DNA from: Escherichia coli | GTDB lineage: Bacteria; Pseudomonadota; Gammaproteobacteria; Enterobacterales; Enterobacteriaceae | DNA length: 64,000 nt | Strand: one strand, 5' to 3' | Assembly (NCBI RefSeq): GCF_045037415.1 | Contig: NZ_CP173438.1 | Shown: piece by piece, positions 2,119-35,309 of the stretch | Numbering within the stretch: the stretch's first letter is position 1 | Layout: each line of letters begins with the position of its first letter | Translations under genes and position numbers: made by a program | The notes under the pieces: model-generated | Told to the model about the DNA's origin: nothing | The model's input: only the letters and a program-made list of their open reading frames with translations | Databases searched by the model: none

Positions 2119-3105
2119 GTGGATAGAGATCAAACAAACAGCAGCCTGTTCAATGATGATCCCGTACTTCATGCAACATGGCTGTACTATCAGGAAGGCA
2201 AAAGCCAGACTGAAGTTGCAGCTATCATGGGGGTGTCCCGCGTCACGGTTGTCAAATACCTGCAAACAGCCCGGGAAAATGGACTGGTTCATATCAACCT
2301 GGATGTGAATGTCTTTGGCTCTATCGACGCTGCTTTGCAAATTCGCGATAAATTCAATCTCCAGAGAGTGATCATCGTGCCGGATGGCGAACATGCCGGA
2401 AAACGTGATGATACAAAGCTGATGCGGACTCGCCTTTCACGTGCCGGTGGCATGTATCTGAATCAGGTGATTGAGAATGGTGATGTGCTGGGGGTTGCCT
2501 GGGGAAGAACAATCCATCAGATGAGCAAAACCATGACGCCGAAGTCATGTAAAAATGTCACCGTTATACAGATGCTCGGTTCCATGCCATCTCAGCCAGA
2601 CCTGACGATCATTGAATCCTCATCGCAAATCGCCTACAAGCTTTCAGGCCGTGTCGCCTCGCTGCACGTGCCCGCCGTGGTATCAAGCGCCAGACTGGCC
2701 ATGGAGTTACAGGCAGAGCCTATTATTCGATCGAATTTTGACGTTCTGACTCGCTGTACGAAAGCCTTTTTTGTCGTGGGTAACGCGCTTGATGAAAATC
2801 CCCTGATTCGGGTGGGCGTGCTGAATAAGAAGGAAATGCAGACGTATCGGGATTTAGGCGCAGTAGGTGTCATTTGTGGTCGCTTCTATGACAAGGAAGG
2901 GATGCCCGTCGTGGCTGATGTTGACCAGCGTATTCTGGGAATCAGTCTGGCTCAGCTAAGGCAGATTGAACGGAAGATCTTCCTTGCTGGTGGGGAAAGA
3001 GGCTATGACGCAACGTTGGGTGCCCTGCTGGGAGGATATGTCACGGACCTGATTGTTGATGAAGGAACGGCAGAGTTTTTGCTGGCGTGTGAATTACCAC
3101 ACTAA
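2119..3105 (+). CDS. yjhU: SorC/DeoR-type sugar-binding transcriptional regulator (GTG start)
   Basis: 328-aa ORF with N-terminal HTH (SQTEVAAIMGVSRVTVVKYL) and SorC-like sugar-binding body; position matches K-12 yjhU. Confidence 0.8.
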   Translation: MDRDQTNSSLFNDDPVLHATWLYYQEGKSQTEVAAIMGVSRVTVVKYLQTARENGLVHINLDVNVFGSIDAALQIRDKFNLQRVIIVPDGEHAGKRDDTKLMRTRLSRAGGMYLNQVIENGDVLGVAWGRTIHQMSKTMTPKSCKNVTVIQMLGSMPSQPDLTIIESSSQIAYKLSGRVASLHVPAVVSSARLAMELQAEPIIRSNFDVLTRCTKAFFVVGNALDENPLIRVGVLNKKEMQTYRDLGAVGVICGRFYDKEGMPVVADVDQRILGISLAQLRQIERKIFLAGGERGYDATLGALLGGYVTDLIVDEGTAEFLLACELPH

Positions 3106-3117
3106 AAGAATGAACAA

Positions 3118-3150
3118 CTGCCCCATGTGGATATGGGGCAGGATTTTATT
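3118..3150. terminator. Putative bidirectional rho-independent terminator between convergent yjhU and transporter gene
   Basis: Inverted repeat TGCCCCATgtggatATGGGGCA followed by a T-rich tract. Confidence 0.5.
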
Positions 3151-4151
3151 GATTAGCGGCGATAATAAGAACAATACCCACAATGTATGAAATAAACATG
3201 GTCAGCAGCAGTTTATTGGTTCCGGCTGGCGCACTGGCAAATTCTCTCCAGATGAAGACTCCCCAGATCACGGCAATCATTGTGGCCCCCTGTCCCAGAC
3301 CGTAGGAAATGGCATACCCCGCCTGACCAGACGCAATCAGACTGAATGCCAGACCGACACACCAAATCATACCGCCCAGCCAGCCGCAAACATGATCCCG
3401 TAAGCTCCCGGAAAAATACATTTTCCCGTTGACCGGTTCTCCTGAAATAGGTTTTTTCATGACCAGCGTGTTAAGGACAAAGTTCGACAAGAACAGCCCC
3501 ACGGCAAACAGAACAAGTGCTGAGTAAGGCGTCATCAGACCGCTGGCAGGCTGGCTGAAATTGTCAGACATGGAGTCCGCCAAGAAGCGGAAAAACCATC
3601 CCATGATGATACCCGCCAGAATGGCAGTAATGAGAACCTTTATTACGGCGAGATTTATCCGCCTCCTGCGTGACACGACCATAGGCTATCGCGGTAAAAA
3701 TAATGGCGCTCACAACGCAGGCGACACCGAGGAACAGAATGAGCGGATCGCCCTGCGGATTGCCGATATAGGTGGTGATCACACCCAGAGCCAGTGCCAG
3801 CCCCACACCCACAGGAAAAGCTACCGCCATACCGGCAAGATTAATAGAAGCGACCAGAAGAATATTGGAAATATTGAAGATAATCCCTGCCAGTATTGCC
3901 GACATCAGACTACTGCTGCTCGCCTGCTGAATATCAGGTATAAAACTGCGACCGGCTTCGCCCATAGAACCCAGCGTGAAGGCAAATAACAAAGAACACA
4001 GCAATAATCCAATTGAATAATCCCAATAGAATAGAGGGAACTCCCATTTTTTATTGCTGACAAGTTTAGTTGTATTCGCCCATGAACCCCAGCAAATCAT
4101 GGTAATAAAACACATTATTATGGCGACAGCATACGATTCCACGATAAACAT
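3146..4151 (-). CDS. GRP/RbsU-type (DMT superfamily) sugar uptake protein, apparently frameshifted around 3645-3680
   Basis: Two overlapping minus-strand ORFs (3564-4151 and 3146-3682), both multi-TM, frames switching near a shared SRR(R) stretch. Confidence 0.55.
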
Positions 4152-4254: not shown

Positions 4255-4896
4255 TTACGCTTTCAAACCATACGTTTTGAATTTTTCAAGGACGATGGTC
4301 ATTTCGGCTTCAGACAGCACGGGAACATCGTGATGTAATCCGCCACATTTGATGTATAAATCAGCCAGCGTCTCGGTTTCACCCGCCAGCCACAACGTCT
4401 TTTCCAGCGTGACGTCCATGGCCAGCATACCGTGGTGCTGCATCAGCAAGGACTTACTTTCTCTGATTCCTTTAGATACACCGTCGGCCAGTTCAGGACT
4501 GCCAAAGGTATAATAGGGAATACAGGGAATATGATCCGTCCCCGATACCGCCACCATATAATGAATGGCCGGAATTGAATGATTATGTATTGCCACCGCC
4601 GTGGAATTCACCGCATGCGTATGTATGACAGCATTCAATTCTGGTCTGGCTTTATAACACGCCAGATGAAATAACCATTCACTTGATGGTATTTTACCCG
4701 CTTCAGGTATTCCCTTATCGTCTACAAAGACAATCATGTCCGGCGTCATCTTTGAATAAGCGATCCCACTCGGCGTAATCAACATGCCACCGGTATACCT
4801 GGCACTCACATTACCTGATGTTCCTTGATTAAGACCTGACGCATTCATTTCCCGACAAGTGGAAATGATTTTTTCTGCTAACTTAATCCGTTCCAT
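4255..4896 (-). CDS. Class II aldolase/adducin-family protein (DHAP-shunt type aldolase)
   Basis: 213-aa ORF with class II aldolase signatures (GTSGNVSAR, metal-binding His cluster HTHAVNSTAVAIH); immediately downstream of mtnA. Confidence 0.8.
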   Translation of the reverse strand: MERIKLAEKIISTCREMNASGLNQGTSGNVSARYTGGMLITPSGIAYSKMTPDMIVFVDDKGIPEAGKIPSSEWLFHLACYKARPELNAVIHTHAVNSTAVAIHNHSIPAIHYMVAVSGTDHIPCIPYYTFGSPELADGVSKGIRESKSLLMQHHGMLAMDVTLEKTLWLAGETETLADLYIKCGGLHHDVPVLSEAEMTIVLEKFKTYGLKA

Positions 4897-4926: not shown

Positions 4927-6042
4927 TTAATGCTGTTCCCCCTGGAGTGCTTTACTCTTCAGGTCAGCAAACATATCCGCCAGCGCTGACTTACTGGCAG
5001 CACAGACTCCCCGCTCAGTAATGAAGCCGGTAATGTATCGGGCAGGCGTGACGTCGAAAGCGTAGTTCCCACAACGGGTTCCTTCAGGGGCGGTATTGAC
5101 CCAGCTCAATTCTCCCTGAGGGTTTATCCCATAGACATGGGACTGCTCTTTTCCGTCACGTTGCTCAATCGGAATGCTTTTTCCGTCCTCGATAGTCCAG
5201 TCAATAGTGGGAGAAGGTAACGCGACGTAGAAGGGAACATGGTTATCATGGGCCGCCAGCGCCTTAAGATAGGTACCAATTTTATTACAGACATCCCCTC
5301 TGGCCGTGGTTCGATCGGTCCCAACAATGCAGAGATCAACGTCACCGTGTTGCATCAGGTGGCCACCCGCGTTGTCGGCGATCAGGGTGTGAGGAATACC
5401 GTGTGAGCCCAGTTCAAATGCCGTGAGTCCGCCCTGATTACGTGGCCGCGTTTCATCCACCCAGACGTGAACAGGGATTCCGTTTTCATGCGCTTTGTAG
5501 ATGGGAGAAAGCGCGGTTCCCCAGTCTACAGTCGCCAGCCAGCCTGCGTTACAATGTGTCAGGATATTGACCACACTCCCGGCCGGTTTTTTCTGGGCTA
5601 TTTCGCGGATGACTTCTGTACCATGTAATCCAATTTGTTCACACAACGCGACATCTTCCTCGGCAATTTCTGCCGCCAGCGCCCAGGCCACATCCTTGCG
5701 CTCTGATACACAGAGATCCTTCAGTGTGTCTATCATCCTGTCGAGGGCCCATTTGAGATTAATTGCCGTTGGTCGGGTTTTGATAAGAAGGTCATAGTAA
5801 CGCTGCAGACCCATGTCACTGGCATCGTGATTCATTCCCAGCGCGATGCCATAGGCTGCAACGACACCAATAAGCGGAGCGCCACGAACCCACATCTCCT
5901 GAATAGCCGTAGCGGCCATTTCCGCAGAGGTAAGCGCCACCACCTCGAACTTAAAAGGCAACTTAGTCTGATCGATGATTTCTACCGCTTTTCCATCCCC
6001 GGAAACCCAGACCGTACGATAGTGTTTACCTTTAATATTCAT
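4927..6042 (-). CDS. mtnA: S-methyl-5-thioribose-1-phosphate isomerase (eIF-2B alpha/beta/delta family)
   Basis: 371-aa ORF; N-terminus ...[19 protein letters not shown] and ...[20 protein letters not shown] typical of MtnA. Confidence 0.85.
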
Positions 6043-6051
6043 AATGACCTC

Positions 6052-7311
6052 TTACTTAACCTTCGCAGACTGGATGACGGAATCCATATTTTTAAACTGG
6101 CGGGCATTGACGATAAGATCGCGCGCCATGGTCAATGCACGTCGTTCACATCCTGCGCGAAGCTCTGTATTTTCAATCTGTTTCAGCTCGGCAACGCCAG
6201 CAAAACCAATGATCCGGCGATTCATTTCCATGCCGGCATTCACCAGGGAATCTTCAAGCAGCGTGGCAAAAAACTGATCCTGTGCGTCCTCAAGAGCGGC
6301 CCTGTTCTGTTGATACATTTCTGTCGGCCACGCGTCGCCCTGTGTTTTGTTGTCCCAGAGCTGGCGGAACTCCCGGGTGAAAACGGACCAGGTTTGGACA
6401 ATCTGCTGAAGCAGCCATTCCTGATAGTCAGCGCGACGTTGCTCATTCGCATCCCACCCAGGGCGTGAGAAGTACGCCAGCAGGAGGTTGCCAATATAGT
6501 TGCCGATATCAAACGCCATTGGCCCCATGAAACCGAACTCCGGATCAATCACTTTGGTATCCGTGTCGGTCACCATGATTGAGCCTGAATGAAGGTCGCC
6601 ATGTAACAATGCCTGCGCTTCTGTCATAAATTTGTACTTATAACGCATGGCAACCTGGATCATCTCTACATCAGCCCAGGCCTTATGGACGGCATCGTCC
6701 AGCTCAGGAGAAGTCCAGTTATTCCGTTCAGCGTTGTAATAGGGCTCTGTGAAGATCAGATCTTCCGTAATTTTGCACAGCTCATGATTCAACGCGAACT
6801 CGGCAGTAAGCGCTTTTTTCTGTTCTGCTGACATGCCAATGTCAGACGTATTGAAGAGAGTCTGTGCTAAAAATCTGCCGATATCTTCAGCTAGTTTAGG
6901 GAATTTTTTACCGTTAATCAGTTCCTTACGCAGAATCACGTGAGGAGTCAGATACTCCATGGCAAACAGCGCCATTTCCGGGTCGTAAAAATAGACCTGC
7001 GGAATCAGTGTGTGACCCGCGTACTTGGCTTCCTGACATAAGACGTTGTACTCAAAGCCCGCACGGCTCAGAGATAAAGGCCATCCTTCGCCCCCTGCAC
7101 GAAGCCAGGGCAGAGCTTGTTTTACAATGATGGTTTTATGTGTCCCCTCAACGATAAACACCATGTTCAGGTTTCCGTCCCCCACTTCTGAAACTTTCCA
7201 CTCTTCAGGTAACCCTCCCGGTTCGCATGAAGGGGTCAGTCTGGACGAGAGATAACCCGGCAGCGTGTCACATGTCAGCGGCTTGTAACCTGATGGAATT
7301 GAATCCGTCAT
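6052..7311 (-). CDS. mtnK: 5-methylthioribose kinase
   Basis: 419-aa ORF with aminoglycoside-phosphotransferase-like kinase fold motifs (HGDLHSGSIMV, DPEFGFMGP); 10-bp gap to mtnA. Confidence 0.85.
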   Translation of the reverse strand: MTDSIPSGYKPLTCDTLPGYLSSRLTPSCEPGGLPEEWKVSEVGDGNLNMVFIVEGTHKTIIVKQALPWLRAGGEGWPLSLSRAGFEYNVLCQEAKYAGHTLIPQVYFYDPEMALFAMEYLTPHVILRKELINGKKFPKLAEDIGRFLAQTLFNTSDIGMSAEQKKALTAEFALNHELCKITEDLIFTEPYYNAERNNWTSPELDDAVHKAWADVEMIQVAMRYKYKFMTEAQALLHGDLHSGSIMVTDTDTKVIDPEFGFMGPMAFDIGNYIGNLLLAYFSRPGWDANEQRRADYQEWLLQQIVQTWSVFTREFRQLWDNKTQGDAWPTEMYQQNRAALEDAQDQFFATLLEDSLVNAGMEMNRRIIGFAGVAELKQIENTELRAGCERRALTMARDLIVNARQFKNMDSVIQSAKVK

Positions 7312-12823: not shown

Positions 12824-13547
12824 ATTTCTAGCCAAGCTGGCGATGAACCAGTCCTCTAAAAAATGGGTATAATCATAGTTTATTTACTAATTAAATTAAT
12901 ATAAAGTAATTACTTTATTATATGGAGAATTTATGAAAATGGGAAAAATTGCAGTTACTCCTAATAATGATAAAGCAGCCAGCCACTCTAAAGATGAAAA
13001 TTTAGCCACAAATACAATTAAGAAAAACGTAAAACCTAAATATGGCGATGCGGCATTTTTAGAGTACACTCGACTAATAGTTAACCACCCGAATTATTTT
13101 GGAATGCCAGATCCCTTTGGGGAAAAAGGTGAGATTCAATGGGAAGCTCCATCAAATAGGGCATCGGGGAAATTTAAACACACTCATCAACGGCGCTATG
13201 AATGGTGGAAAAATAAAGCCAGAAGTATTGGGATAGACCCTGACACTGAAAAAGCATGGATTAGTAAAACAGCTAAACTAATTCATCCACTTGGAGTTAA
13301 ACCATGCAAGAAATGCGGTAAAGAAATGGAATTATCTTACTCCTACCCAAATGAGCATTTCTTTTCTCGGGTTAGGAAACTTAATTATATAGATGAGACT
13401 TTTGAGCTATCTCAAAATGAACACATAGTTGATTTGTTGACTCGTTTAGATGATAGATTTGGTGAAAGAATATATTTAGATTTACCACATTTATTTTCTA
13501 CAAAATCCATCACGATTTGAAGTGGTCAACAAAAACTGGCCACCGAG

Positions 13548-14695
<1,148 letters not shown>

Positions 14696-15928
14696 TATGG
14701 CACCTGTGTTGTTCTGAGGTGAGCATATCACCTCTGTTCAGGTGGCCAAATTCAGTAAACCACTTCAATTCCAGATATTTCAAGCAATCTCGAAGCATGG
14801 ATTGAGTATCTAAAAGAACAATACATACCTCAAGAATCACGTATGCTTAGCCCTGGAGCCATGGCAAATCCTCCAGATCGTTTTGATGGATTTCATTCAT
14901 TTAACCGCTGTTGTCGCTCTATTGCTGATAAAGGAAGGACCAAAGAAAATCTTAAATCTTATGTTACTGACAGAAGAGTTTTCGAATATTGGGTGGATGG
15001 TGATTGGGTAGCTGCAGACAGGCTAATGGGCCAAGTTAGAACAAATAATATATTTATTAACGAGGAATGTTTGAATGCCGGAAATGGTGGTTTACATCCA
15101 ACTCCTTGCCAAGCAGATCACATTGGCCCAATCTCACTAGGGTTTTCCCATCGCCCACAATTTCAACTACTTTGCAAATCATGTAATAGTGCCAAAAACA
15201 ATCGTATGTATTTAAGTGATATAATCTCTTTATTAGAAGCTGAGAATGAAGGTCATACGGTTATTTCATGGTTCGCAGAAGAAGTATGGAATCGACTAAA
15301 ACACTCTGTAGATGATAGTGAAAAAGCCTTAAGACTAAGTAAAATACTACGTGATAATAGACATACATATATGAATCTTCTTAAAAAAATAATGGATGAA
15401 GGTTATTATACTTTCCTTGCAAGTCTTTTACATCTTGAGGTAGCCAATTATAACCCAATATTTGAGGGATTATGCATTTCAAATCATTTAACTCATTATA
15501 AATCATTAAAAAAAATAAAACGTGAATCAAAATATGCTGCTGTGCAAAAAACAAGACGAATCAGAATAGCATTTACTTCATTGAATGATTATCATAGAAA
15601 AGAAAATCGGAACGCATTTATTGTATCAAATGAATTATCTGAGAAGTTTTTCTCTGAAGCTATGGATAATTTAAAATCATTAAGTGAAATTACATCTTGC
15701 TTAGATGAAAAAATATCCGGAATAATATCTGAGAATTCAGATTCAAAAAATGAATTTCGAACAATCATTACAGATCTACGAGAAATAGTGACAAACAATA
15801 AAGAAAAATTCAACTTGATATTAAAATATCTAATATCAGGGATGAGCGAAATAGGAAAAGAACTGGAATCATATTGGGAAAATGATCGTTATGTTCGCTC
15901 AATCCCAGAAGAATTTATAGAGTAAGAC

Positions 15929-15952
15929 ATAGCCCTCTTATAAAGAGGGTTT
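15929..15952. terminator. Possible bidirectional terminator hairpin between convergent REase and MTase genes
   Basis: CCCTCTTtataAAGAGGG hairpin followed by TTTTAT; overlaps the C5-MTase stop. Confidence 0.3.
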
Positions 15953-17128
15953 TATATTCCTTTCATAATATTCTGAAGGAGTAATATTACCTCTCATGAA
16001 TAATTGATAGTCATTTTCGGGGTGATGGATATAATATTTACCACTTCCATCTTCACCATGTTGCAAAGGAGGCAGATCAGATAATGCATCCTTTACAGAT
16101 ACCCAAGATTCCTTATCTTCTGTTAATTTTTGTGGAGGTTCAATTGAAAATAAAGGGTCGTTTGAACCAACCAATATAACCCTTTTTCGGCGCTGAGGGA
16201 TTGCATAATGTTCAGAGTTTAATATCCATCCATTCATAGTTTTCATGGTTGATGAGAATTCTTCTTTGACTCTTTCAAAGACCTTACCTTTTTCCATATT
16301 CAACAAACCAGCAACATTTTCAAAAATAAAACCGTTTGGTTTTATCTCATTTAAGAGAGATTTATAATGCATAAAAAGTGAATTTCTTGGATCATCCATT
16401 GTTCTGGCATTTCCTGCCGTAGAAAATCCCTGGCATGGGGGTCCACCAAGTATCCATAATTGTTTATCAAAATATAATTTCTTAAATCCTGATATTTTAT
16501 CTGCTATTTTTGAAAAAGTTTCATTATCAGAAATGCTGCCACATAAAACTTCTTTGTGAACATTGTTTGAATATGTTTGTAGATATTTTTCTTCAATATC
16601 ATTCGCCAATAATGGAGTCCATCCAGCCCATTTGAATCCTAGTCCCAGCCCTCCAGCTCCGGAAAATAAATCGATATAATAACCAGTATTACCTATCGCC
16701 TTCTCTATTTCTTTCGCAATCAGAAAAGCTAAAAATGGGGGCACTGCATTACCGATTTGGGTATTAATTGCTGTTTGACCTCCGAAGAAAATAAAATCAT
16801 CCGGGAACGATTGTAGTCTTGCAGCTTCTCTCTGGGATAGAACACGATCTTGCTCATAGTGAATATGGCAACCATTCCCAGGTCGGTTAAAATATGTATT
16901 GATAGTATATGCAGGCATATCTGGAAGTAATCTACCGTAGTATGTTGAACGGCTTCCTTTTCCTTGTGCATAACTATCCCTAATTTGCTCTATTCTTTTA
17001 GACGGTACATCTAAAGGAATATTTTTCCAGTTGCCACCTGGCGGTACTGAGTTAACAATCATCATATCCAATTCACTTAGCTTTGCTGCCTTGTGATTGG
17101 GAATCATAAATGTTTCACTTTTAGTCAT
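15938..17128 (-). CDS. DNA (cytosine-5)-methyltransferase, circularly permuted motif order
   Basis: Motifs IX/X (RLQSFPDDFIF, QIGNAVPP) precede motif I (DLFSGAGGLGLGF), IV (GGPPCQGFSTAGN), VI (FIFENVAGLL), VIII (QRRKRVILVG). Confidence 0.85.
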   Translation of the reverse strand: MTKSETFMIPNHKAAKLSELDMMIVNSVPPGGNWKNIPLDVPSKRIEQIRDSYAQGKGSRSTYYGRLLPDMPAYTINTYFNRPGNGCHIHYEQDRVLSQREAARLQSFPDDFIFFGGQTAINTQIGNAVPPFLAFLIAKEIEKAIGNTGYYIDLFSGAGGLGLGFKWAGWTPLLANDIEEKYLQTYSNNVHKEVLCGSISDNETFSKIADKISGFKKLYFDKQLWILGGPPCQGFSTAGNARTMDDPRNSLFMHYKSLLNEIKPNGFIFENVAGLLNMEKGKVFERVKEEFSSTMKTMNGWILNSEHYAIPQRRKRVILVGSNDPLFSIEPPQKLTEDKESWVSVKDALSDLPPLQHGEDGSGKYYIHHPENDYQLFMRGNITPSEYYERNIKPSL

Positions 17129-18761
17129 AATGTTGAAAAATCCTCAATAAACTTTCTTTTTCAGCTAACTCAATCTTATCAAATGAAGACAGAAGCTTAT
17201 TAAATTCATTCAAATCCAATTTGTAAATATTTTTGGCAACATAAGCCTCAATTTTCAACTCAGCATCACAACATCCCTCTATGCAAGAAATCACAAGTTG
17301 TTTTAATTCAGAATGTTGTAATAATATTTTTTCAGACGGTATTGCAGTTTTTCGTAAGGCTGACAATGATACATGACCAGTAGCTAAAAAGCTTCTTAAT
17401 TGAAATTCAAAACAAAGGGAGTTTATAATACCAAGCAAACTAAAGAGCGAATCTTGCGAACCACTTTTATAATAGACCACCCCTAATGAATTCCCTGCCA
17501 AAGAGTTAGGAGGTATTATCGTTGCAATCATTCGCCTTTTTTGACTCGGGCGTGAAATGTCACGCCATGCAATCCTTACGAAATTAGAATTGGATAGAAC
17601 CTTATCAATTTTTTTCGTTATTCTTAAGCTCTTCTCATTATGAAAATTATACCTCCCAATCATTTTTCCTTTAATGAATAATAATCCGCCGCCACTTTTT
17701 TGTGTCCAGTCACTACTACCAGTTTCATCTATTTCTCTTCCTGCCCATATCTCTCCATTTTTTTCCAGACTACCCCATGTTGGGTATCCCTCTTGCAGCT
17801 TTCTTAACAAATGAACGGCATGAACACCTTGAGATACCGGAATGCTAAGATATTGAGAATCTATACTAGACAAATCAAAAAAACCTAGTGATTTAATATT
17901 TAAGTTTTTATCATACACACTAAGTTGAATATTATCATTAAGGGATTCACCTTTATTAAAAATAAAAGAACATGAAGAAACATCAGCACCGCCGAATAAT
18001 TTAGCCTCAGCTGGATAATAATTTATGCAATCAATCCTCCCTGAATTAAAAAACTTTTCACGTAATATGTACGATTGTTCATCTGCGAAAAAAGATGCAG
18101 GCATAACTATAGCTACCAATCCATTTTTATTACATATTTCTAAGCTAAGTTCTGCACCAACACGTGAAAGATTAGTCCCCCACCCAGCAAATTTACGCTT
18201 CGGCTGAGAATATGGCAATACTCTTGACAAATAATCATCAAACTCACGAAGAGAGTCTATATACATCGATTTCATAGATGGTTCAAAAAAATCGAGCTCT
18301 CTAGAATCTGGTTTTATATTCTCCCAAGGCGGATTGGTTATAACACAATCAAAATAATCAACATATTTTTTAAATTCATAAAAAACATCACTATTTTTTA
18401 TAGTAATGTTAATATTTGCACCTGCTAACTTAAGTTCAGACAACGCATTTTTAGCATAAGTGAGGCCTGTATTTTCTATATCGAACAGATAAACATTCCA
18501 CTCTACATCTGGAAAACCATTTATCATCCATTGTTTAATAAGCAATGTAATAAGTCGACCATCCCCTGAAAATGGATCTGCGACATTATAACTTTTTTTA
18601 TCACAGGAATTTATCAATGGTAATAACTTCTCTATCATCAAAAGAGCTATTTTTGGATCTGTATAGTATTTACCTGTCGCTTTTTTAGTGAATTTTGTTG
18701 TCTCGTCCAAGGACAGTGAATTAATTAAATGGATATGTTTCATGTAAAATATCTCTTCCAT
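17121..18761 (-). CDS. N6-adenine DNA methyltransferase
   Basis: Motif I VADPFSGDGRLI and motif IV VITNPPWE; stop overlaps the start of the downstream C5-MTase by 8 bp (operon). Confidence 0.8.
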   Translation of the reverse strand: MEEIFYMKHIHLINSLSLDETTKFTKKATGKYYTDPKIALLMIEKLLPLINSCDKKSYNVADPFSGDGRLITLLIKQWMINGFPDVEWNVYLFDIENTGLTYAKNALSELKLAGANINITIKNSDVFYEFKKYVDYFDCVITNPPWENIKPDSRELDFFEPSMKSMYIDSLREFDDYLSRVLPYSQPKRKFAGWGTNLSRVGAELSLEICNKNGLVAIVMPASFFADEQSYILREKFFNSGRIDCINYYPAEAKLFGGADVSSCSFIFNKGESLNDNIQLSVYDKNLNIKSLGFFDLSSIDSQYLSIPVSQGVHAVHLLRKLQEGYPTWGSLEKNGEIWAGREIDETGSSDWTQKSGGGLLFIKGKMIGRYNFHNEKSLRITKKIDKVLSNSNFVRIAWRDISRPSQKRRMIATIIPPNSLAGNSLGVVYYKSGSQDSLFSLLGIINSLCFEFQLRSFLATGHVSLSALRKTAIPSEKILLQHSELKQLVISCIEGCCDAELKIEAYVAKNIYKLDLNEFNKLLSSFDKIELAEKESLLRIFQHYD

Positions 18762-19790: not shown

Positions 19791-19901
19791 GACTCGATTT
19801 GCATACGGTATGGTGCTGCGTATTACCGTGAAGGAGATCGGTGAGTAACATCGATGGAGATCGGTTCGTGTCACTTTCACAGAACCGTTTTTAAATTACC
19901 T

Positions 19902-20651
19902 TCACTGATCTCCTTCGGTCAACGGAGATTGTATTTTCCGCATTGATTCTCCTTTAAGTTCGATCTTGATACTGCCATGAACCAGTCGATCTAGGATGGC
20001 ATCCGCATGTGTGGAGTCTCCGATCATTTTGTACCAGTTTTCCACCGGCAACTGGCTCACTACGATGATTGAGCCTCGTTGGTACATCAGATCCACTATT
20101 TCCAGCAGGTCGCTACGCTGTTCTGATGAGAGAGGTTCCAGCCCCCAGTCATCCAGAAGCAGCAGATCGCTATTATTCAGCCTGGTCAAAAGTTTGCTGT
20201 ATCTTCCATCAGCATGCCCCTGATAGCACTGTTCCATCAGCGCTTTAAGGCGATAATAGTAGACCTTGTATCCCTGTCGGCAGGCATTATGACCAAGTGC
20301 ACATGCCAGGAACGTTTTACCGCTGCCGGTGGCCCCGGTCAGTAAAATATTTTGTTTCAGGGTTAACCAGTTTCCCTGACTGAGTGAACGGATGAGGGCC
20401 CTGTCCAGCCCTCTATTGTTACGATAATCCAGCTTTGATAACTCAGCATTAAGTCTGAACCGTGCATGTTTGATCAGACGCTCTGCCTTCCTGTTTTCAC
20501 GGCAGGTTAGTTCTTCTGCTGTCAGTAATGACAGGCGTTCTTCGAAGCCCAGCTCCTGGTATGTGCCCGGTTGAGCAAGTTGCTTTTTAAGCGCATCACG
20601 GAAGCCGGTGAGTTTAAGTGCGGTCAGTTGTTCGTAAAGATGATTCATCAT
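19902..20651 (-). CDS. istB: IS21-family IstB ATP-binding helper protein
   Basis: 249 aa; Walker A LTGATGSGKTFLA, Walker B LLLLDDWG. Confidence 0.9.
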   Translation of the reverse strand: MMNHLYEQLTALKLTGFRDALKKQLAQPGTYQELGFEERLSLLTAEELTCRENRKAERLIKHARFRLNAELSKLDYRNNRGLDRALIRSLSQGNWLTLKQNILLTGATGSGKTFLACALGHNACRQGYKVYYYRLKALMEQCYQGHADGRYSKLLTRLNNSDLLLLDDWGLEPLSSEQRSDLLEIVDLMYQRGSIIVVSQLPVENWYKMIGDSTHADAILDRLVHGSIKIELKGESMRKIQSPLTEGDQ

Positions 20652-20662
20652 TGGATCCCGTA

Positions 20663-22204
20663 TCAGTGGTAATACTCACTGCCGCGTACGTTTTCGTGTT
20701 CCATCGTGGATAACAGATCTGGTTTTGGATCCTGAACAGGTTGTTTATCCAGACCTTTTTCCAGGATCGATTTAATACCTGACAGACGCCATACCTTTGT
20801 TTTCAGAGCTCTTGCACATGCTGCATTAAGTCTGGCTTTACTGTATTTTTTATGAAGGTTCAGGAGTCCAAGGCAGAAGCGATAGCTTTGTTCCGGATGT
20901 GGACGAGAGTTCAGTATATGAAGCACATAACTATGAGTTTCACTGCCTATGTGCCCCGCCCATTCCAGAAGACGCTCTGGCGTCCAGGTGGCATGCTGTC
21001 GATGAGCTTCAGGCATGTGCTCGTTGCGGGTACTGTAGCCATAAGTACGCTTGCGCGGGTGCACAGCAACCTCCTGCCCCTGATTGAAGAGTCTTACCAG
21101 TTCTCCGGAGATCCATGCTTCCAGTTGCTGGCCTAACAGCGAACATGGAACCGAGTAGTAATGTTTGTCGATTTCCACGTGGTAATCGGCATGAACTCTG
21201 ACTTTCTTCACCAGGGTGTAACTGTAACTGGCTTCAGGAAGAGGCTTCAGTGCGGGTTTATCAAGCTGGATGAAGAGTTCTGCACGTGAATAACCCAACT
21301 TCTGCATTATTTTGTTATTCAGTCTTTCCAGCAACTCCCGAATGCGCTGATTAAGCGATGCAAGGCTGTAGAAGATCTCATGCCTGATTCGGGCCATGAT
21401 CCAGCGTTCAACAACCTGAACGCCAACTTCAGCTTTGGCTTTATCTTTCGGTTTACGTGGCCGCGCAGGCAAAACTGCGACATTATAATGCTCAAGCATC
21501 TGCTGGTAGGTAGGGTTAACGTCAGGATCATACTTACATGCCCTGGATGTGGCGCTTTTCAGATTGTCCGGAACAACAAGTTCAGGAACGCCACCCAACC
21601 ACTGGAAGCAGCGAACATGACTCATCACCCAGTCTTCAAGCTGCTGAGACCAGGTGGCCTCTGCCCATGTGTAACTTGATGCCCCGAGAACAGCTACGAT
21701 GACCTGAGCAGTTCTTATTTCTCCGGTCTCAGGGTCGGTAACGCCAACGGTAGGTCCACAGTAATCAACGAAAAGTTTTTCGCCAGCTTTATGTACCTGA
21801 CGCATTGATGGTGAAGTGGTTTTGAGCCATTCACGGTACATCCGGCAGTAATGGTTATAGCTGTAAAAACCGCCTGGATTACGCTCACAGTATTCTTCCC
21901 AGAGTAGCTGCAGCGTCACGCATTTATTACGCAGTTCCCGGTGTACTGTAGCCCAGTCAGGCAGAGAGTGCTTCTTCATCTTAACCTGGGTCTGAAGGAA
22001 CGCATGTTTTAGTTTTGTATCATCCCATCCTGTAGGTAAGGGCCACTGCTTTATGCCAAGTTGAGCCGCCCGATTAGCATATCTGGATACAACGGAAGGG
22101 GAGATTGCAAGACTACGACCAATTTGTCGATGGCTGAGTCCAACACCGTATTTAAGCCTAAGAATTTCTTTAAGTTTTCTCATAGAAATTGGAACTGTTG
22201 GCAT
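20663..22204 (-). CDS. istA: IS21-family IstA transposase
   Basis: 513 aa; N-terminal HTH plus DDE integrase core. Confidence 0.9.
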   Translation of the reverse strand: MPTVPISMRKLKEILRLKYGVGLSHRQIGRSLAISPSVVSRYANRAAQLGIKQWPLPTGWDDTKLKHAFLQTQVKMKKHSLPDWATVHRELRNKCVTLQLLWEEYCERNPGGFYSYNHYCRMYREWLKTTSPSMRQVHKAGEKLFVDYCGPTVGVTDPETGEIRTAQVIVAVLGASSYTWAEATWSQQLEDWVMSHVRCFQWLGGVPELVVPDNLKSATSRACKYDPDVNPTYQQMLEHYNVAVLPARPRKPKDKAKAEVGVQVVERWIMARIRHEIFYSLASLNQRIRELLERLNNKIMQKLGYSRAELFIQLDKPALKPLPEASYSYTLVKKVRVHADYHVEIDKHYYSVPCSLLGQQLEAWISGELVRLFNQGQEVAVHPRKRTYGYSTRNEHMPEAHRQHATWTPERLLEWAGHIGSETHSYVLHILNSRPHPEQSYRFCLGLLNLHKKYSKARLNAACARALKTKVWRLSGIKSILEKGLDKQPVQDPKPDLLSTMEHENVRGSEYYH

Positions 22205-22917
22205 AGGTATCCTTTACCGGAATGGCAAAAGATACAGATCAACACACCTGTGAAGTTCCAATAACATTGATGGAGATCACTGAATAACAAAATGAGTCAA
22301 AAGTGATCTCCATCGATGTTATTCAGCGATCTGTTCAAATGTTATTACCCGATCTCGATGGAAGTTATTGAGTGATCTCCTTTCATGAAAATACGCAGGT
22401 GCGAAGGCCGGACTCAAACATGCGATTTAACCTCATGATTTAAAATTGTTAATAATAAACAACACCATCCTATACCAACACAGATACCAACACGAAAAAT
22501 CACTGGTTTTCGGCATCGAACCAGGACAATCAGGTCCTGATTGAGATACCGAGCTCTGTTACTCGTCATCTTCCTCGACAGGCTCCATTGCATCAAGTGG
22601 TACTCGCACCATCGCGATAGAACCAATCCGGATAAAAGCATCTTCCCCATCTATATCGGTTAACTGATATCGCTTACTTGATGCCGGATAATTGTGTCGA
22701 TTGGCAACAGTGTACTCTTTCGTACAGCCAGAATGTGGCAGACTGAGGTGGAATAGATAACGTCCGTATGCCCGCTGACCACCTCCGGGCGGGAGAGTGT
22801 GGTATCTGACATCATCATTTTTCCTTTCTGTTTATAAATGAAAATGCCAGCCGTGTTCAGGCTGACGTCAGGGAAGTGAAATCGGGTGAGTGATCTTCAC
22901 TGGTTCTGGTACAAAAG

Positions 22918-30580: not shown

Positions 30581-31477
30581 TCAGGCATTTCCCCTGGCAG
30601 AGTGTTCAGAAGAAAATCCAGTTCCATACAGCGCGGGCAACAGAGACCACCGTGTCACGGACGGCACGCAGAACCGTGCGTGCAACAGAGGCAATACAGA
30701 CGCTCTCCGCCGTGTCAAATATCCGGTCCACCGCACCGGTAAACTGTTCACGGGCCTGAACCGGACAGATTCCGTGCGCAGCTCGTCCTGCAGGCGGGTC
30801 ATCAGGGGACTGGCGGCATGGTCGGGAAGTGCTGTCATGAGCGCACTGACCAGCGTATCCAGTTCCCAGCCGGTGCGGGCCGATACGGCCACAACCGGAT
30901 GTACGGGCCGGAACAGACGGAATACCGCCTCCGTTTTCTCCCGAATGTTCTGTGCCTGTGCGGGAGAAGGCTGAATGCCGGCCATATCCCATTCATGGCA
31001 GGGCTCCGTTTTGTCGGCCTGCGTCACCACAAACAGCACCTGCTGATGTCCCCGGTGCAGGATGTGTCGCCAGAAATACTCATCCACAGACAGGGCACGG
31101 TCATCGGCTTTAATCAGCCACAGTACCAGGTCAAGTTCAGGCAGAATGTCACGGTACAGGGCTTCATACTCTGCATCCCTGTTCCGGCTCTCGCCCACCC
31201 CGGGCAGGTCAGTGATAACCATGCTGTGACCATGGCCACTCAGACGGAAGCGCCGTACTTCCCGGGTGCCGGCGTGAACATCACTGACCGGGGTGACCTC
31301 CCCCTGAAACAGTGCATTACAGAGTGAGGATTTACCGGCCCCGCTTTTACCCATAATGCCAATCACGGGTTCGTGACTGGTGAGTTTGCGCAGATGTTCC
31401 AGGATGTGACGGGAAAGCGAGTAAGGCAGGGAGGAGAGCGGTTTTTCAATTGCCTCAATGGCATCAGACGGATTCAT
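30581..31477 (-). CDS. yeeP: YeeP/YkfA/YfjP-family GTPase, probable C-terminal frameshift near 30770-30780
   Basis: G1 motif GIMGKSGAGKSS, G3 DLPGVG; the conserved C-terminus (...QAREQFTGAVDRIFDTAESV...) is in another frame (ORF 30606-30992). Confidence 0.7.
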   Translation of the reverse strand: MNPSDAIEAIEKPLSSLPYSLSRHILEHLRKLTSHEPVIGIMGKSGAGKSSLCNALFQGEVTPVSDVHAGTREVRRFRLSGHGHSMVITDLPGVGESRNRDAEYEALYRDILPELDLVLWLIKADDRALSVDEYFWRHILHRGHQQVLFVVTQADKTEPCHEWDMAGIQPSPAQAQNIREKTEAVFRLFRPVHPVVAVSARTGWELDTLVSALMTALPDHAASPLMTRLQDELRTESVRFRPVNSLPVRWTGYLTRRRASVLPLLHARFCVPSVTRWSLLPALYGTGFSSEHSARGNA

Positions 31478-34584: not shown

Positions 34585-35309
34585 GAGAATGTTCCTCCGG
34601 ATGTTGTTAATCTCAACCGGCGTTGGTGATGAAAACAACGCACCACCTTCACCGGCATAACAACCGGGGAGAAACGTAAAAAATAATCGGGAATGTGACC
34701 GTCAGGAGATAAACGGGGGGATTGCGGTGGCTGAGCCGTACCGGTATGTCGGGTGGTTGTTGCGAAACGATGCTTCCGCACGCGCACGCGATAAAGGAGG
34801 GAGGACTTTCGTGAGACAAGGGGAAAACTAGCGTTCTGATAATTGCAGAGTTGTTTTTGAAGGCGGTTGTGGTATATCAGCCTGTGACCTGTGGGCAGGC
34901 GACAGTTATCACTGGTGGGATAAGACTGTCTGATTGGTATTATAAATATATAAGAGAGATCAAACACATGAGATCAAATACATGAGTTCATATATGTGAA
35001 ATAAACACTGTGAGTGCGATCAGTGGGCATGAGAACGCAGTAGCAGCAGATTGCGTTGTACCCACAGGGCTATCTCTGATAGCTGGCGTATAACCTGCGT
35101 ATATAAAACGTACCTGCAACACACGTGAACAGAGTGCATTAAGCATCCGTCTGAGCGGTAAACGTATCCGACCTGGTGAGTGACAGTCTGAGAGACCGGT
35201 TAAGTGGTGGCACGGGAGTAATGAGTTTGGGGAGGGTACCAGAATGCCAGGCTGGTGCGGTATGCTGACAGCATCCTGTTAACCGCAGCATAAAGTAATG
35301 AGAGGCTAA

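Follow-up and report, generated by a model that had tools for sequence, protein, structure and literature searches.

The window, i.e., the whole stretch of 64,000 nucleotides that was analysed, contains a DHAP-shunt operon of ExPEC/ST131 E. coli composed of four adjacent co-directional genes, mtnK-mtnA-ald2-permease, with yjhU/mtnR located alongside; the permease gene, the fourth and last gene of the operon, is divided between two overlapping open reading frames (ORFs). The features of this region are as follows:

2119-3105, plus strand: yjhU, encoding the operon's sugar-binding transcriptional repressor (MtnR in PMC12632272) and oriented convergently to the permease gene
3146-4151, minus strand: permease gene (RefSeq product name "GRP family sugar transporter"), 1006 nt; the intact allele has 1005 nt and encodes 334 aa (WP_000471145.1)
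3564-4151, minus strand: N-terminal permease ORF, 172 native residues, which cover TM1-5 plus the central loop, followed by a 23-residue out-of-frame tail
3146-3682, minus strand: C-terminal permease ORF, a 16-residue out-of-frame head followed by 162 native residues (TM6-10)
3632-3638, plus strand: Eco31I site with an extra A, GAGAACC (intact: GAGACC/GGTCTC), the cause of the frame split
4255-4896, minus strand: ald2, DHAP-shunt aldolase of class II (annotation: L-fuculose-phosphate aldolase), intact (NF005984, 364 bits; WP_000439686.1)
4927-6042, minus strand: mtnA, 5-methylthioribose-1-phosphate isomerase, intact (TIGR00512, 410 bits)
6052-7311, minus strand: mtnK, 5-methylthioribose/5-deoxyribose kinase, intact (TIGR01767, 522 bits)

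A DHAP-shunt operon of this composition, controlled by YjhU/MtnR and CRP, has been described in E. coli (PMC12632272; PMC10986504; also North et al. 2020, as cited in these two papers), and the product of its fourth gene was termed a putative permease of unknown function (PMC12632272). The gene order, the neighbours and the regulator in the window are those of the published operon, but the permease gene has one extra base. This gene is annotated as uninterrupted (1005 nt, 334 aa) in Nissle 1917 (comparison locus NZ_CP022686.1, 3374524-3378688), JJ1887 and O25b:H4; the Citrobacter orthologs are likewise 334 aa long. Over its first 25 kb, the window is approximately 100% identical to O25b:H4-ST131 genomes.

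According to the ORF listing, the N-terminal and C-terminal ORFs encode 195 and 178 aa, respectively, and share the stretch 3564-3682 (119 bp) in different frames; an overlap of this kind follows mechanically from a 1-nt shift and is not a matter of chance. A hydropathy scan found five transmembrane (TM) candidates in each half and ten (5+5) in the reconstructed protein, where a hydrophilic central loop (residues 156-172) lies between TM5 and TM6. In a Pfam search, the N part matched positions 2-125 and the C part positions 198-358 of the 359 positions of the PF07168 profile; since both ORFs match this profile, and do so in separate stretches, they represent two halves of one protein. Removal of the extra base yields a protein identical to WP_000471145.1, which ST131, Nissle 1917 and further cluster-bearing genomes encode. 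The initial annotation had described two multi-TM ORFs that lie in different frames and have 119 bp in common, with which the ORF listing and the hydropathy scan agree, and had interpreted them as one porter broken by a single-base indel; this reading is borne out by the complete E. coli genomes, of which 1227 out of 1237 lack the extra base. Pairs of half-size genes were not found among the orthologs, the non-carrier genomes examined and Citrobacter having a single gene for 334 aa.

Judging by its sequence, the permease is a 10-TM protein of the DMT superfamily, for which the GRP label is weakly supported. It resembles both the GRP family (GlcU/RbsU; PF06800) and the ureide permeases (PF07168) in its length of about 330 aa and its ten predicted TM segments arranged as 5+5, and both Pfam matches exceed the gathering cut-offs; the match to PF06800 is marginal (28.9 bits, with a cut-off of 26.3) and weaker than that to PF07168 Ureide_permease (67 bits). 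Thus, the GRP/RbsU-type assignment proposed initially coincides with the RefSeq product name, whereas the best Pfam match is PF07168. No NCBIfam model reached its cut-off for the permease (RhaT scored 28 bits, its cut-off being 369), and a sequence search of the PDB found no solved relative. In a check for internal duplication, BLASTP comparison of one half of the permease with the other gave a best E-value of 0.11.

The altered Eco31I site and the Eco31I-type system

Alignment of the permease gene of the window with the intact 1005-nt gene of Nissle 1917 revealed one extra base as the sole difference. On the coding strand, the sequence reads AAAGG[T]TCTC, and on the plus strand GAG[A]ACC (3632-3638), the additional A being base 3635 or 3636; the indel expected earlier near 3645-3680 is indeed a single base within the ORF overlap, but it lies about 10 nt outside that interval. 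The identical permease sequence is flagged as "frameshifted" in RefSeq (PGAP). The intact sequence at the lesion is GGTCTC, the only Eco31I 6-mer of the gene and of the first 13.5 kb of the window, and the extra base lies at the neighbouring T3/C4 positions of this motif, i.e., the positions of m6A and m5C. Only the 6-mer GGTCTC is affected, not the 5-mer GTCTC; errors at every GTCTC (Alw26I-type) 5-mer can be dismissed, as the other five in the first 13.5 kb are unchanged. A homopolymer error at the permease site was also considered and ruled out, the context being a run of one base extended to two.

The window encodes an Eco31I-type restriction-modification (R-M) system about 10 kb from the permease lesion:

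12933-15925, plus strand: gene of the Eco31I-type restriction endonuclease, disrupted by an ISEc52 copy (13518-14767); the gene ends are derived from the annotation of strain 447
15938-17128, minus strand: M2, Eco31I-type cytosine-5 methyltransferase, intact, predicted to make GGT(m5C)TC
17121-18743, minus strand: M1, Eco31I-type adenine methyltransferase, intact, makes GAG(m6A)CC; strain 447 has the identical protein

In the ST131 strain EC958, GAG(m6A)CC was found methylated at 100% of sites, and GGT(m5C)TC was predicted from the adjacent M2 enzyme; the two modified bases occupy neighbouring duplex positions on opposite strands (Forde et al., PMC4659465). The 1250-bp copy of ISEc52 at 13518-14767 breaks the endonuclease gene and leaves both methyltransferase genes whole, so methylation would go on without restriction. 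The same ISEc52 insertion is present in strain A1.S1.126 and, apparently, in the sequencing run SRR28375022. Another insertion, ISEc12 (IS21 family, istA/istB) at 19817-22397, occurs in strains 447, 98215 and many ST131 genomes and is absent from JJ1887, O25b:H4 and A1.S1.126. The window combines the A1.S1.126-like ISEc52 with the 447/98215-like ISEc12, and none of the carriers examined matches it exactly; the window may therefore come from yet another assembly.

A comparison with JJ1887 indicated that the permease site is not the only Eco31I site altered in the window. Across 60,170 aligned nt, there are six differences, three of them indels, and two of these three indels fall within Eco31I motifs: the permease insertion and a deletion at 30758-30762. 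The motif bases constitute 0.09% of all bases, and the probability of at least two of six differences falling in them is about 1e-5. Nine further Eco31I sites of the window are unaltered, a point against an error tied to the motif. The second altered site is as follows:

30758-30762, plus strand: Eco31I site GAACC (GAGACC in JJ1887) with one base lost, which frameshifts a GTPase-family gene

The only non-motif indel in about 60 kb is a run of six G at 34715-34720, where JJ1887 has five; it looks like a classical homopolymer length error, with a real variant being possible, and it appears to lie between annotated genes, judging by the annotation coordinates of JJ1887. Transitions relative to JJ1887 outside Eco31I motifs were found at 15950, 38804 and 43035, and these may be real lineage SNPs or other context errors; the first is located within the M2 gene, and the M2 protein of the window is that of strain 447.

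The 40-kb loci of six carrier genomes were compared at the seven Eco31I sites known from JJ1887. Five of the seven sites are changed in at least one carrier assembly, every time at C4, the change being either GGTCTC to GGTTTC (GAGACC to GAAACC) or GGTCTC to GGTTCTC (GAGACC to GAGAACC). In strain 447, a change of the latter type made sgcC "frameshifted" (L004, 30164-31478), and a protein variant of yjhG in A1.S1.126 (L003, 23360-25327) coincides with GAGACC to GAAACC. Next to no changes were seen in these loci apart from those in the motif.

Distribution of the alleles among genomes, clone-mates and sequencing runs

The stretch around the indel is contained in 1237 of 5426 complete E. coli genomes (1596 match part of a 1151-nt region), and a search with an 80-nt probe found the insertion allele in ten of the 1237, originating from Egypt, Poland, Taiwan, Thailand and elsewhere. 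Carriers 447 and 98215 are 100% identical to the window across the shared 13.5 kb, where the non-carrier ST131 genomes differ from the window in this single gap only. In a collection of 15 billion proteins, the exact 195-aa fragment is encoded on 18 contigs, compared with at least 1000 contigs for the intact permease. The GTPase deletion allele (30759) is present in 31 genomes, which overlap partially with the ten permease carriers.

The "Esc" assemblies represent one clone, since nearly all their genome sizes lie between 5,156,475 and 5,156,542 bp and they have insertions in common; Esc5, Esc7, Esc10, Esc16 and Esc25 all contain the same ISEcp1-CTX-M-15/IS26 and ISEc52 insertions. The states of the two altered sites in these assemblies and in JJ1887 are the following:

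Esc5, Esc16: transporter site intact, GTPase site deleted
Esc7, Esc25: transporter site inserted, GTPase site intact
Esc10: transporter site inserted, GTPase site deleted
JJ1887: transporter site intact, GTPase site intact

Three combinations of states of the transporter and GTPase sites thus exist inside the Esc clone, and the fourth is that of JJ1887. When the five Esc assemblies are aligned over 42.2 kb, only two columns vary; each lies in an Eco31I motif, and four of the four possible combinations of their states occur among the five assemblies. No tree fits such a four-combination pattern, and real clonal mutations would need repeated recurrence at these very bases. The permease insertion is found on at least three SNP backgrounds and is not congruent with clonal descent. 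The assumption that the ten carriers form a sub-lineage of ST131 was rejected, as clone-mates differ at the site and the flanking IS structures vary among carriers.

Six of the 18 contigs with the 195-aa fragment are Logan (de Bruijn) assemblies of single runs. In SRR28375022, SRR34090797, SRR26899129 and SRR26769861, the Logan contig terminates precisely at GGT|CTC within another Eco31I site; the end of a fifth contig is 48 nt short of such a site. Contig ends at GGT|CTC suggest that the reads within those runs disagree at the methylated cytosine. A further contig end (left end of L026) lies by a GATC site in mtnK (JJ1887 locus L010, 17704-17705; about position 6545 of the window), and in another run (L022) the same base is changed from T to C, GTGATTGATCC to GTGATCGATCC. 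This mtnK position may be a Dam-linked ambiguous position.

Origin of the extra base

The split of the permease gene is very probably a methylation-induced error of basecalling and consensus, typical of native-DNA nanopore assemblies, and not a pseudogene. This interpretation rests on the location of the extra base on methylated Eco31I positions, on the intact methyltransferase genes, on its non-heritable behaviour, on the recurrence of similar changes at other Eco31I sites but hardly anywhere else, and on the disagreement of reads in independent runs. The M1 and M2 enzymes of ST131 would place m6A opposite T3 and m5C on C4 of GGTCTC, and a nanopore basecaller reading native methylated DNA would make ambiguous calls at the modified positions. 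Small differences in read proportions could then decide whether the consensus is correct, has C replaced with T, gains an extra T or misses a base; in the assembly of the window, the consensus would have fallen to the extra base, producing two overlapping ORFs. We infer that the platform was native-DNA nanopore sequencing and that the source assembly of the window shares this history. The platform is hinted at only by accession numbers of recent date and by a contig name in the style of Flye. The co-location of the indels with transitions at the same base suggests that the indels are another form of the methylation error.

Strain-specific, motif-bound errors caused by methylation are documented for native-DNA nanopore assemblies, and whether a wrong call enters the final assembly hinges on small differences in read frequency and varies between repeats (Lohde et al. 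2024, PMC11610573; Dabernig-Heinz et al. 2024, PMC11389150; Chiou et al. 2023, PMC10687267). The changes at the Eco31I sites resemble these published errors in several respects: the motif is strain-specific, the substitutions are C/T or G/A at the modified base, the calls are not constant when one strain is assembled repeatedly, unmethylated positions are spared, and spurious alleles and spurious phylogenetic distance result. At the same time, the motif in the present case is unlike the published ones, being a type IIS site, GGTCTC, with m5C and m6A at adjacent positions on opposite strands. The error type reported in the three papers is transitions, whereas here +1/-1 indels create false pseudogenes, a form not described in PMC11610573, PMC11389150 and PMC10687267. 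A literature search for GAGACC in connection with nanopore errors returned only papers on motif-finding software, and a search on the names of the carrier strains found nothing.

The initial annotation had left the choice between a pseudogene and a sequencing error, and the evidence, namely the methylated Eco31I positions and the lack of heritability across assemblies, strongly favours the latter. A genuine frameshift, which would truncate the permease after TM5 and leave mtnK, mtnA and ald2 intact without a polar effect, as the gene is the last one, is unlikely, although it has some arguments on its side. PGAP reports the gene as "frameshifted" in ten complete genomes from several countries, all ten carriers have exactly the same insertion, which suits a highly error-prone context and is formally consistent with a real recurrent mutation, and the lengthening of a run from one base to two is unlike the classical error in long homopolymers. 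The loss would also be tolerable: K-12, which is without the permease, grew on 5 mM 5-deoxyribose when given only mtnK-mtnA-ald2 (PMC10986504). The distribution, however, is incompatible with inheritance, as clone-mates show every combination of states at this and other Eco31I sites and the allele occurs on several SNP backgrounds; moreover, a random indel in a 1005-nt gene would strike its single 6-bp Eco31I site with a chance of less than 1%, and the second motif indel of the window is at an Eco31I site too.

The possibility that the extra base is real, with the Eco31I sites of ST131 being hypermutable or with the 5-TM halves working as a split DMT transporter, is very slight, and each of its two versions, taken separately, appears barely credible. 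Real hypermutation at Eco31I sites, e.g., by m5C deamination or faulty repair, would imply truly heterogeneous populations; the change of GGTCTC to GGTTTC at m5C is a classical signature of deamination, and the contig breaks at the motif show heterogeneity while leaving its cause unspecified, but deamination does not produce +1/-1 indels. Eco31I cleaves outside its recognition site (N1/N5), and the endonuclease gene in the window is disrupted by an IS. A mutation rate high enough to set clone-mates apart at these sites alone would have wiped out the sites, which are nevertheless kept in JJ1887 and O25b:H4 as well as in some 1200 further genomes. As for a functional split, either into a two-chain DMT transporter or by a ribosomal +1 frameshift within the 119-nt overlap, the break coincides with the central hydrophilic loop that separates TM5 from TM6, and DMT proteins are thought to descend from half-size units. 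Nevertheless, the ATG at 3682 has no suitably spaced Shine-Dalgarno (SD) sequence, the AGGAGG of the overlap being located downstream of this ATG and followed by ATA, and the overlap contains no known +1 frameshift signal; 1227 of the 1237 genomes have the unsplit gene, and the allele is not inherited. Restart or translational coupling for the C-terminal half was ruled out in the same way, a usable combination of SD sequence and start codon being absent. Were hypermutation or a functional split true, the R-M system would repeatedly be inactivating genes at specific sites in a pandemic clone.

With the methylation error as the preferred explanation, the DHAP-shunt operon of the window should be read as complete, and there is no evidence for the loss of uptake. 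Even a real frameshift would not imply that "uptake lost", as had been proposed, is correct, given the growth of K-12 on 5-deoxyribose without the permease (PMC10986504); the three enzymes would be unaffected, as the permease gene is the last in the operon, and the most that could be lost is a dedicated or high-affinity route. More broadly, some RefSeq "complete genomes" of Eco31I-methylating ST131 contain false frameshifts and false SNPs at GGTCTC, cases in point being sgcC of strain 447, the permease (ten genomes) and the GTPase gene (31 genomes). Artefacts at GGTCTC can pass for pseudogenisation, for parallel evolution or for variants that tell outbreaks apart; errors of this kind have been described before, so the present case amounts to a curation caveat and not a discovery.
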